Shown here: piece by piece, positions 19,809 to 21,493 of the stretch | Numbering within the stretch: position 1 is the stretch's first letter | Layout: each line of letters starts with the position of its first letter | The notes under the pieces: model-generated | Database searches by the model: none | The model's input: only the letters and a program-made list of their open reading frames with translations | What the model was told of the DNA's origin: nothing | Virus record (IMG/VR): IMGVR_UViG_2563366865_000004 | Span: 1 to 38,371 of that record | Reading direction: 5' to 3' (one strand) | DNA: 38,371 nucleotides | Source: a virus | Lineage: Duplodnaviria > Heunggongvirae > Uroviricota > Caudoviricetes | Translations under genes and position numbers: made by a program

Positions 19809-20276
19809 TCATCGAAGGCATTGCGTCCTGATGTATTCCTGAAGCGTTCTCAGTGCTGTTTGGTCGCGGATAATTCCGTCCCGGACACCGAGAACGTTTC
19901 GTCCAGCAACTGGAGAGAGTTCGACGGTGGCATCATTGCCCATGCCGGAGGCGCTGGAGGTTTCGTCTGAGGATGGCACATGGCATTTTCCTTTGACGAG
20001 CACCCTGCCACCATTATCAAGCTTGCGCCGAAGAGCATCATTTTCAGCTTTCGCATCAGCTAACTCCTTCGTGTATTTAGCATCGAGTGCATCAGCATCA
20101 CGCTGGCGCTGCTGCATGTCAGTAATGGTGGCGTTCGCCTGCTTCAGCTCACTGACTTTTTTATCGCGCTGTTCTTTGTAGGCGATTGCATTATCACGGT
20201 AATGATTAACAGCCCATGACAGGCAGACGATGATGCAGATAACCAGAGCGGAGATAATCGCGGTTACTCTGCTCAT
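19809..20276 (-). CDS. Rz: Rz i-spanin, 155 aa, lambda-type
   Basis: [31 protein letters not shown] closely matches lambda Rz as remembered. Confidence 0.9.
19850..20056 (-). CDS. Rz1: Rz1 o-spanin lipoprotein embedded in +1 frame of Rz, 68 aa
   Basis: [19 protein letters not shown] lipobox, proline-rich PPAPPAW segment, embedded in Rz. Confidence 0.8.
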
Positions 20277-20749
20277 ACCTCAATCTCTCTGACTGTTCCG
20301 CCAGCTTCTTTGAATTTTGCAATCAGGCTGTCAGCCTTATGCTCGAACTGACCATAACCAGCGCCCGGCAGTGAAGCCCAGATATTGCTGCAACGGTCGA
20401 TAGCCTGACGGATATCACCGCGATCAATCATCGGTAAAGCGCCACGCTCCTTAATCTGCTGCAGCGCAACTGCGTCCTGGCTTTTCGGAGAGAAATCTTT
20501 CAAGCCAAGCTGCTTACGATAGGCATCCCACCAACGGGAAAGAAGCTGGTAACGTCCGGCTGCTGTTGATTTGAGTTTTGGGTTTAGCGTGACAAGTTTG
20601 CGAGGGTGATCGGAGTAATCAGTGAATAGCTCTCCGCCTACAATGACGTCATAACCATGATTTCTGGTTTTCTGACGTCCGTTATCAGTTCCCTCTGACC
20701 ACGCCAGCATATCAAGGAACGCCTTACGTTGATTATTGATTTCCACCAT
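20273..20749 (-). CDS. R: Endolysin (lytic transglycosylase), 158 aa, lambda R-type
   Basis: [39 protein letters not shown] matches lambda R almost exactly as remembered. Confidence 0.95.
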
Positions 20750-21056
20750 CTTCTACTCCGGCTTTTTTAGCAGCGAAGCGTTTGATAAGCGAACCAATCG
20801 AGTCAGTACCGATGTAGCCGATGAACACGCTAGTTATATAAGCGAGATTGCTACTTAGTCCGGCGAAGTCGAGAAGGTCACGAATGAACCAGGCGATAAT
20901 GGCGCACATCGTTGCGTCGATTACTGTTTTTGTAAACGCACCGCCATTATACCTGCCGCGAAGGTACGCCATTGCAAACGCAAGGATTGCCCCGATGCCT
21001 TGTTCCTTTGCCGCGAGAATGGCGGCTAACAGGTCATGTTTTTCTGGCATCTTCAT
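20733..21056 (-). CDS. S: Holin, 107 aa, lambda S-type with dual start (Met1/Met3)
   Basis: [39 protein letters not shown] matches lambda S as remembered. Confidence 0.95.
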
Positions 21057-21183
21057 GTCTTACCCCCAATAAGGGGATTTGCTCTATTTAATTAGGAATA
21101 AGGTCGATTACTGATAGAACAAATCCAGGCTACTGTGTTTAGTAATCAGATTTGTTCGTGACCGATATGCACGGGCAAAACGG

Positions 21184-21213
21184 CAGGAGGTTGTTAGCGC
21201 GACCTCCTGCCAC
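21184..21213 (-). promoter_or_regulatory. Perfect 10-bp GC-rich inverted repeat hairpin in the late leader about 130 nt upstream of the holin gene
   Basis: GGCAGGAGGT-(10 nt)-ACCTCCTGCC; followed on the minus strand by GTTTTG. Confidence 0.4.
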
Positions 21214-21493
21214 CCGCTTTCACGAAGGTCATGTGTAGAAGGCCGCAGCGTAACTATCACTGATGAATTCAGGATAGCCAGTGGCTACGGCTCAGTTTGG
21301 ATTGTGGCGACCGGTGCTGATCTCCGGTTTGCTGCAACTGCCTACAGCGGGCTACGTGGCCACACCGAATCCAGCGAAAGATTCTTGCCCTTACACATCA
21401 GCCTGTGCATTCACCACAACGATAAGAGCACTGCGCGGCACCTTTCACCAATTCCGCGAGGTCTGAGGGTTCAATGCTCTTGCCTGTTGTGCA

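Follow-up and report, generated by a model that had tools for sequence, protein, structure and literature searches.

The window, as we call the whole 38,371-nucleotide stretch of DNA analysed here (a Caudoviricetes record, IMGVR_UViG_2563366865_000004), is recognised as a lambdoid prophage, namely a CUS-3-like, K1-capsule-specific, P22-like podovirus of E. coli. Its late-gene switch and lysis genes, all on the minus strand, comprise a Q antiterminator gene, a late promoter cassette with its terminator, two further leader segments and the genes S, R, Rz and Rz1; a cII gene and the immunity core lie at higher positions (Table 1).

Table 1. Positions of the late-switch, lysis, cII and immunity features in the window.
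Feature	Position	Strand	Basis or remark
Rz inner-membrane spanin gene, 155 aa	19809..20276	-	Pfam Phage_lysis
Rz1 outer-membrane lipoprotein spanin gene, 68 aa	19850..20056	-	within Rz, +1 frame
R endolysin gene, lambda type, 158 aa	20273..20749	-	identity to lambda R
S holin/antiholin gene	20733..21056	-	lambda identity, Pfam Phage_holin_3_1
sdi stem-loop, CCCCTTATTGGGGG	21076-21063	-	upstream of S start
S-proximal leader, boundary sequence bsq3	21057..21306	-	97.6% to lambda 44936-45185
Covarying hairpin	21217-21171	-	compensatory stem change
Variable middle leader segment	21307..21492	-	JEP4 match
pR'21 late promoter cassette, phage 21	21493..21577	-	coordinates transferred from OL657228 features
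pR'21 -35, TTGACA	21577-21572	-	
QBEu ATTGAGCA + QBEd AATGAGCA	21569-21554	-	OL657228 annotation
pR'21 -10, AACACT	21554-21549	-	start site about 21542
Sigma-dependent pause element, TAAGCTG	21541-21535	-	
Terminator tR'	21540-21493	-	
Q antiterminator gene, phage 21 type, 162 aa	21584..22072	-	Q21 chains, Pfam
cII gene, lambda type	28371..28664	-	lambda match, Pfam
Immunity core: cro, OR operators, c2/cI	28773..29689	both	P22/phage 21 identity
cro	28773-28958	-	
c2/cI repressor	29039-29689	+	

The Q protein (Pfam Phage_antitermQ, E = 1e-24) is identical at 160 of 162 positions to the phage 21 Q chains in crystal structures 6JNX and 6P18 and shares 16% identity with both lambda Q and P22 Q, so that its original assignment to a third type is borne out and the type can be named as that of phage 21. 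At the DNA level, 21492-22079 is 98.3% identical to the phage 21 record OL657228, where positions 39011-39590 hold a like series of Q, -35, QBEu and QBEd, -10, start site, pause element and terminator. Promoter, QBE, pause element and terminator show zero mismatches to phage 21 in our alignment (A1), and the terminator is predicted to form a hairpin of -23.1 kcal/mol followed by seven U. The window thus holds, by sequence, the components of a phage 21-type Q cassette, that is the Q21 protein, two 8-bp direct repeats, the pause element and the terminator. The assignment of pR'21 and tR' is a transfer from the phage 21 annotation; a consensus promoter and terminator scan of 19300-21700 missed both and returned sites no commoner than in shuffled sequence. 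The pR'/qut/6S/tR' part of lambda, HK620 and P22 had no counterpart in the window in the same alignment, and BLAST of lambda 44510-44785 (pR'-qut-6S RNA-tR') gave no match in the window. A site resembling the qut site of phage 21 is already pointed out in the GenBank record of Sf6.

Homology with phage 21 extends as far as 21492, the point at which that phage has the start of tRNA-Asn. Beyond the terminator phage 21 continues with tRNA-Asn, tRNA-Thr and an unrelated S21 pinholin/SAR endolysin cassette, whereas the window continues past the same terminator with a leader common to lambdoid phages and with lambda-type S and R. A junction between Q and the late leader, as originally proposed, does exist, but it resolves into two. 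One (21492/21491) lies just past the phage 21 terminator and the other (21307/21306) 250 bp upstream of S, and a 185-bp segment of third origin sits between them. Between Q and S the leader measures 527 bp, and its lambda-like part is limited to the 250 bp adjoining S (21057-21306). BLAST of the middle segment retrieved nothing in lambda, P22 or phage 21, while JEP4 covers it inside a 765-bp match of 98.3%. A long hairpin is found in this segment, with arms at 21491-21472 and 21433-21415; both arms are kept in lambda (about 44786-44862), HK620, CUS-3 and JEP4, and the loop between them is variable. Two further short patches past the terminator of lambda are also conserved in the window. Searching the entire window against Rfam with gathering thresholds returned nothing, and ARAGORN detected no tRNA; the variable leader therefore hides no tRNA genes of the kind that phage 21 and SfI carry there.

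The S-proximal part of the leader forms the left edge of the lambda-like block, directly upstream of S. The equivalent stretch of CUS-3 (CP000711) is annotated as "bsq3; boundary sequence", in a record that names bsq1-bsq5 and gives no function, and phage 21 retains the first 61 bp of it (98.4%) in front of its unrelated lysis cassette. Within bsq3 the stem of the covarying hairpin has a pair that is G-C in lambda and in the window; JEP4 and CUS-3 have U-A there, and P22 has A-U.

S differs from lambda S at a single residue (106/107 identical; 88% identity to P22 gp13) and belongs to Pfam Phage_holin_3_1 (PF05106, E = 2.4e-30). Its dual start ATG-AAG-ATG gives S107 from 21056 and S105 from 21050, and both the start sequence ATGAAGATG (21056-21048) and the sdi stem match lambda; Met1-Lys2-Met3 together with the sdi stem-loop make it a class I holin of the lambda kind. 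R is identical to lambda R at 156 of 158 residues and to the unrelated P22 gp19, a T4-type lysozyme, at 18%. Twenty-one of its codons are unlike those of lambda, 19 of them synonymously. No Pfam family was assigned to the R protein, which by its identity is a lambda R-type lytic transglycosylase and has, in a WSEG motif, the Glu19 that we take to be the catalytic residue.

Rz (Pfam Phage_lysis, PF03245, E = 9.5e-30) is a hybrid with respect to lambda. Codons 1-83 are lambda/21-like, with about 88% identity between the lambda residues and those of the window, and codons 84-155 are an HK620-type allele. The junction after codon 83 (20029/20028), which the original prediction did not list, leaves the second half of Rz and the greater part of Rz1 outside the lambda type. 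Overall identity of Rz to lambda is 62%, with only scattered identities in the C-terminal 72 residues, and in the bins covering 19800-19999 nucleotide identity to lambda is 0.22-0.42; Rz/Rz1 as a whole is thus not the lambda allele. Rz1 starts 220 nt into Rz, hence in the +1 frame, is 38% identical to lambda Rz1 (Pfam Rz1, PF06085, E = 6.8e-21) and is of the HK620 type from about codon 10 on; the stretch 19599-20028, holding this allele, is found at 97-98% in HK620, 611R6, Kapi1 and phiv205-1. With a VAGC lipobox including Cys19, a Cys27 and a PPAPPAW motif in Rz1, the pair has the make-up of a two-component embedded spanin. Cys98 and Cys153 of Rz correspond in position to lambda C99 and C152 (PMC5295617). 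The junction falls where coiled-coil CC1 (residues 27-87) ends, so that the swapped part consists of the L2 linker, CC2, the CTD and nearly all of Rz1, and it is the C-terminal end of CC2 that contacts Rz1 (PMC5295617). Intact reading frames, and the arrangement in JEP4, HK620 and further sequenced phages, suggest that the hybrid Rz would work alongside the lambda-type S and R.

Taken together, lambda 46213-44936 aligns with window 20029-21306 over 1278 ungapped bp at 95.5%. Both edges of this block are sharp: in 50-bp bins identity falls from 0.9-1.0 to 0.2-0.3 (about 25%, the random level). Inside, identity differs between the parts (leader 97.6%, S 98.7%, R 95.4%, 5' part of Rz 89.9%; heterogeneity p = 3.5e-6). 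The lysis genes and leader had been expected to match lambda nearly residue for residue, which is so for S and R but not for Rz beyond residue 83, for nearly all of Rz1 or for the leader beyond the 250 bp next to S. Uniform divergence from lambda, the pattern that would speak against a modular mosaic, is clearly not what the binned identities give, and the mosaic reading holds. Unlike lambda, the window has no bor gene downstream of the lysis genes.

Outside the late region, the lambda-like character proposed for cII and its ribosome-binding region was confirmed (28375-28681 against lambda 38649-38343, 97.1%; Pfam Phage_CII, E = 1.1e-47), and CUS-3 has a lambda-type cII block at the same position. 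Also as proposed, cro and c2 are P22-type, with 95% and 92% amino acid identity to P22, and slightly nearer to phage 21 (97% for both). The OR region is almost the same in P22, phage 21 and CUS-3 as in the window, and over the first 53 residues of the repressor only two positions differ between the window, P22 and phage 21; the predicted immunity type is that of P22 immC and phage 21 specificity.

The virion genes likewise belong to P22 protein families, forming a P22-like (Lederbergvirus) module of coat, portal, tailspike head-binding domain, tail needle and ejection proteins (P22_CoatProtein, E = 1.4e-140; P22_portal, E = 8.7e-179; Head_binding, E = 2.1e-66). The tail needle, ejection proteins and mnt/arc were correctly called P22-type, and so is ant (42-93% amino acid identity across these, arc and mnt included). 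Identity to P22 reaches 93% in gp10 and gp14, 83% in gp7 and 62% in gp26. As a description of the whole backbone, however, "P22-type" fits loosely, the head being Sf6-type and the remainder CUS-3-like. Portal and scaffold share just 32% identity with their P22 counterparts, and tblastn found no match of the coat protein to P22; the head genes are therefore, judged on sequence, of another type than those of P22, nearest to Sf6 and HF4s.

The ninB gene is interrupted by a 587-bp cassette with an HNH homing-endonuclease gene. A junction had been placed here too, and the disruption is real, but it is mainly this insertion and no module boundary. The cassette may be a homing element that supplies ninB, which it interrupts, with a substitute 5' end. 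JEP4, CUS-3, HK620, Sf6 and 611R6 all lack it, and SBF22 carries it at 100% identity with immunity, replication and Q genes unlike those of the window. An intein lies within the DnaB helicase, and the CUS-3 helicase is without it.

The same patchwork recurs in relatives. JEP4 joins Q21, a leader in three parts, S, R and HK620-type Rz/Rz1 just as the window does and is collinear over all three late-region junctions (19646-22079, 96.6%, 2 gaps). CUS-3 is collinear over the cro/cII junction (26527-29918, 98.7%) and resembles the window in its tailspike (98.9%), its cII-cro-cI region (98.7%) and its overall layout, but has a related yet different Q and QBE, another Rz/Rz1 allele and other head genes. 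In both CUS-3 and HK620 the lambda-type S-R stretch is contained in one HSP, and 611R6 aligns over 19463-22500. The Q of HK620 is lambda-type, and its match therefore ends inside the leader. JEP4, CUS-3, HK620, Sf6 and vB_EcoP-611R6 (Lederbergvirus) all unite lambda-type S and R with a virion of the P22 family. About 390 phage records match 19000-22500, and the top matches to the region include many P22-like phages. Among complete E. coli genomes, 193 match the query over 80% or more of its length, and some match is present in 5140 of 5426. The mosaic arrangement is thus already known, the full combination from the JEP4 record and the principle, that lysis cassettes and Q types can be swapped between P22-like phages, from PMC2629481.

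In our opinion the region is, with little room for doubt, a canonical late-gene switch and lysis cassette of a lambdoid prophage, put together as a patchwork and inherited as such. The junctions had been called recent, as would apply if direct transfers from lambda into a P22-type genome had made them in this very genome. S with its adjoining leader (98-99% to lambda) and cII (97%) would fit such transfers, but this explanation is improbable: R (95.4%) and the 5' part of Rz (89.9%) are lower, 19 synonymous codon differences have accumulated in R alone, and distal Rz and Rz1 are not lambda-type. Moreover, divergence of the blocks from the named phages amounts to 1.5-10%, and the same junctions are collinear in JEP4 and CUS-3, which implies that they were inherited and not formed in this genome. 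CUS-3, HK620, 611R6 and JEP4 match S-R as well as lambda does, and their matches outreach those of lambda, on both sides in 611R6 and JEP4, past the Rz junction in HK620 and past the leader junction in CUS-3. On the same evidence we reject lambda as the direct donor.

An explanation without recombination, by ancient uniform divergence with S, R and cII held under strong purifying selection and other sequences under relaxed selection, could draw on the fact that identity within the lambda block varies by sequence type. We consider it very improbable, because identity drops from more than 90% to about 25%, the random level, inside 50 bp, because the flanks past each edge are 97-98% identical to phage 21, HK620 and JEP4, and because synonymous sites and the non-coding leader are conserved inside the block. 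Least credible of all is an assembly chimera joining reads from lambda-like and P22-like prophages of one host. Sequences matching the region do occur in E. coli genomes at a median of 2 copies and a maximum of 12, and the window starts inside a repeat array, but order and junctions recur in the independently sequenced JEP4, CUS-3, HK620 and 611R6 and in the 193 E. coli genomes covering the query.

For the inherited patchwork, near-identity to studied parts suggests how the region would operate. The phage 21-type Q would bind the two 8-bp direct repeats between -35 and -10 of its own promoter, load onto RNA polymerase halted at the sigma-dependent pause element and allow the modified polymerase to pass the terminator directly downstream, following the loading and antitermination mechanism of Q21 (bioRxiv 10.1101/651190). 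Transcription would then cross the structured leader common to lambdoid phages and reach S, R, Rz and Rz1, upon which S105 holin and S107 antiholin would time hole formation in the inner membrane, R transglycosylase would degrade the cell wall and the Rz-Rz1 spanin would disrupt the outer membrane. The prophage is probably inducible, as its reading frames are intact and sequenced phages have the same arrangement.

The exchangeable units are the Q21 cassette to just past its terminator, the variable leader segment, the boundary leader with lambda-type S, R and proximal Rz, and the HK620-type distal Rz with Rz1. Breakpoints lie where function permits, with Q kept beside its own binding site and distal Rz beside its partner Rz1. 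Most likely the patchwork goes back to earlier recombination events at conserved linkers; we favour exchange at the boundary sequence over the alternative route, in which illegitimate recombination is followed by selection. As for the leader from terminator to S, it is conceivable, though we are rather doubtful, that it is a functional structured RNA, beyond a passive recombination linker. The duplex of about 20 bp formed at long range directly past the terminator resembles an RNase III substrate, and a second leader hairpin, about 115-160 nt upstream of S, carries compensatory changes in three lineages. If these two elements processed or attenuated the late transcript, or set S expression, selection on them would account both for the conservation of the leader, which equals that of the genes, and for the occurrence of module exchange at the leader.

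The main value of these results lies in correct annotation, including recognition of the window as a CUS-3-like, K1-specific prophage, and their importance beyond that is small. No new question is opened, as the arrangement is present in the GenBank records of JEP4, and a P22-like virion with lambda-type S and R in those of HK620, CUS-3 and Sf6. The region provides, nevertheless, a clean case of lambdoid modules breaking where function allows, with the conserved leader as the joint: Q moves with its binding site and terminator, and distal Rz moves with Rz1.

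In the late region, local BLASTN found a single match to lambda (NC_001416), window 20029-21306 against lambda 46213-44936 (1278 bp, ungapped, 95.5% identity). Extending the alignment in the same register gave a 50-bp identity of 0.8-1.0 within this block and 0.18-0.42 beyond; each edge drops inside one 50-bp bin, thus arguing against a uniform divergence from lambda. All the genes concerned lie on the minus strand. The residue-for-residue match to lambda proposed by the original prediction for S, R and Rz/Rz1 holds for S (106/107) and R (156/158), but not for Rz (62%) or Rz1 (38%). 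Even the block is heterogeneous (leader 97.6%, S 98.7%, R 95.4%, 5' part of Rz 89.9%; chi-square p = 3.5e-6), and R shows 19 synonymous and two non-synonymous codon differences from lambda, which reflects a long-standing common ancestry with purifying selection rather than a recent transfer. In P22, S is 83% identical at the DNA level and the endolysin is unrelated.

Features of the late region and of the ninB-helicase region (window coordinates)
Feature	Coordinates	Strand	Remarks
DnaB-type helicase gene	24736-27129	-	797 aa; the P22 and CUS-3 helicases have about 458 aa
ninB insertion ORFs	24075-24662 and 23645-24073	-	
ninH, rusA, ybcO			upstream of Q
Q	21584-22072	-	
Leader part (a)	21584-21492		phage 21-specific
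Leader part (b)	21491-21307		variable; unmatched by BLAST in lambda, P22 and phage 21; lies inside a 98.3% match to JEP4
Long post-terminator hairpin	arms 21491-21472 and 21433-21415	-	directly after each phage's own terminator
Leader part (c)	21306-21057		97.6% to lambda; CUS-3 equivalent annotated "bsq3; boundary sequence"
Second leader hairpin	21217-21171	-	in part (c), about 115-160 nt upstream of S, followed by GTTTTG
S	20733-21056	-	
R	20273-20749	-	
Rz	19809-20276	-	
Rz1	19850-20056	-	embedded in Rz
50-aa ORF, DUF2560 gene, small and large terminase genes			downstream of Rz; terminase names taken from the CUS-3 annotation

Q had appeared to be of a third type, and indeed it shares 16% identity with lambda Q and 160 of 162 residues with the crystallised phage 21 Q. 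At 21492-22079 the DNA shares 98.3% identity with that of phage 21 (OL657228), whose record annotates a -35, the Q-binding repeats QBEu (ATTGAGCA) and QBEd (AATGAGCA), a -10, the start site, a pause element and the terminator; their counterpart, window 21577-21493, aligns to phage 21 with zero mismatches. Structural work describes how Q21, bound to the QBE, is loaded onto polymerase in its sigma-dependent pause and then fits the RNA exit channel with a nozzle, so blocking terminator hairpins (bioRxiv 10.1101/651190). The late-terminator hairpin has a folding energy of -23.1 kcal/mol and a tail of seven U; the phage 21 homology stops just past the terminator, where phage 21 has a tRNA-Asn. A qut site like that of phage 21 is already mentioned in the Sf6 record. 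Separately, the N antiterminator gene (30038-30343, plus strand) looks hybrid, a stretch of its 3' half (30136-30307) being 96.5% identical to phage 21 N in DNA, while over its full length the protein reaches only 65%; its N-terminal, would-be RNA-binding part may be a different allele.

Since the Q21 homology ends after the terminator and the lambda match is restricted to the S-proximal stretch, the 527-bp leader consists of three parts. The leader is therefore lambda-like, as had been claimed, at 21306-21057 (97.6%), but not in its remainder, with no BLAST match to lambda at 21491-21307. This variable part retains two short patches common to lambda (about 44786-44862), HK620, CUS-3 (CP000711) and JEP4, which are the conserved arms of a long hairpin with a loop of ~40 to >100 nt. 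Daniels et al. reportedly mapped RNase III sites in the lambda late leader in 1988, and Luk and Szybalski are said to have described tandem downstream terminators there in 1983; the hairpin at 21491-21415 may be the RNase III site reported for lambda. In the second hairpin, one stem pair shows compensatory changes in three lineages: lambda and the window have G-C there, JEP4 and CUS-3 have U-A, and P22 has A-U. The outer stem of this hairpin covaries as well, in P22 and HK620. Phage 21 retains the first 61 bp of part (c) (window 21237-21297 against phage 21 39748-39808, 98.4%), placed between its tRNA genes and an unrelated pinholin cassette, which is consistent with a shared recombination joint. 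Elsewhere the variable slot carries tRNA genes (phage 21, SfI) or HNH endonuclease genes (HK629, SBF22 prophage); in the window this slot is empty.

At the other edge, Rz is close to lambda as far as residue 83 (…AKAENDALR), with sporadic matches only beyond, and the DNA breaks at 20029/20028, 27 nt past the Rz1 start codon. Lambda Rz comprises CC1 (residues 27-87), the L2 linker (89-120) and CC2 (121-150), whose C-terminal end contacts Rz1 (PMC5295617). Given these limits and the position of the break, the exchanged unit comprises the Rz linker, CC2 and C-terminus plus all of mature Rz1, the two parts that need to match one another. The stretch carrying the non-lambda part (19599-20028) is 97-98% identical in HK620, vB_EcoP-611R6, Kapi1 and phiv205-1, and 95% in JEP4. 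The spanin hallmarks are kept, i.e. +1 embedding, the lipobox VAGC with Cys19, Rz Cys98 and Cys153, and Rz1 Cys27. The slot downstream of Rz (19361-19821) is nearly empty in the window; P22, JEP4 and HK620 have rha or KilA-N genes there, and CUS-3 has an unnamed 203-aa ORF. What the window keeps is a 199-bp P22 match (94%) that covers the very end of rha and a portion of orf25, and the 50-aa ORF (19669-19821), with a hydrophobic N-terminus, which overlaps the Rz end.

A sequence break does exist around ninB, but instead of a mosaic junction it is mainly a 587-bp HNH insertion (23980-24566) that splits the gene as compared with lambda, P22, phage 21 and CUS-3. An HNH_3 plus AP2 endonuclease is joined in frame to codons 1-32 of the common ninB allele; a full-length ninB begins two bases beyond the stop of this fusion, and over roughly its first 31 codons it is a diverged allele, with a DNA identity to lambda of about 52%. 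The insertion had no megablast match among 50,697 phage records and is 99-100% identical in eight of 5426 E. coli genomes; the SBF22 prophage, the only one of the eight compared, differs from the window in its genes for immunity, replication and Q. Among phages, the closest relatives of the insertion are free-standing homing endonucleases (<=51% identity). The helicase gene carries a 1014-bp insertion (25513-26526) relative to CUS-3; 51 records have it at 99.4% identity, almost all of them Stx2a-converting phages. Because it encodes a LAGLIDADG-type domain and its 338 extra codons follow the Walker A motif (GMGK | AMALSEG … VTHN | T), it reads as an intein.

As regards immunity, cII and its ribosome-binding region are lambda-like as anticipated (97.1%), and the P22-type assignment of cro (95%) and the c2 repressor (92%) was borne out, though both are closer to phage 21 (97% each). 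These identities, together with an OR region nearly invariant across the window, P22, phage 21 and CUS-3, place the immunity in the P22/21 specificity type; immC of P22 and imm21 are homoimmune. For mnt/arc, the immI arrangement of ant, Arc-like and Mnt-like genes is that of P22, but identity is just 42-56%. The tail and ejection proteins, the tail needle among those expected to be P22-type, are so at 46-93% identity; portal and scaffold reach just 32% to P22, and the coat is recognisable by Pfam alone. The head genes are Sf6-type and not CUS-3-type, HF4s matching 8394-18737 in a single piece at 97.2%, and represent a swap of the whole procapsid module in an otherwise CUS-3-like prophage. Across coat, scaffold and portal (12273-16853), CUS-3 gives no match or only a 64% match, and Sf6, HF4s and HK620 match at 94-97%.

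The window starts inside a heptanucleotide repeat, GTCTTGA (12 perfect copies, 1-84), corresponding to the AAGACTC repeat annotated in the CUS-3 record as the poly(psi) domain of neuO, and encodes a 981-aa endosialidase tailspike (241-3186) in a stretch 98.9% identical to CUS-3. On these grounds the element is a K1-capsule-specific CUS-3-like prophage, and it is collinear with the CUS-3 prophage up to attR (~38151). Past the position matching the CUS-3 attR core (about 38136-38151), a short ORF (MQHELQPDSLVDLKF…) within 38152-38371 resembles by eye AlpA-type regulators of integrative elements, which would suggest a second element in tandem.

The supposed recency of the junctions was not supported by existing phages. 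JEP4 is collinear with window 19646-22079 (96.6%, 2 gaps), all three late-region junctions included, and CUS-3 with 26527-29918 (98.7%), across the cro/cII junction. Of 5426 complete E. coli genomes, 5140 match some part of the region and 193 cover 80% or more of it. The original observation is thus partly confirmed and its interpretation partly supported: the mosaic is real but ordinary and already known, interchangeable lysis cassettes and Q types being documented among P22-like phages (PMC2629481).
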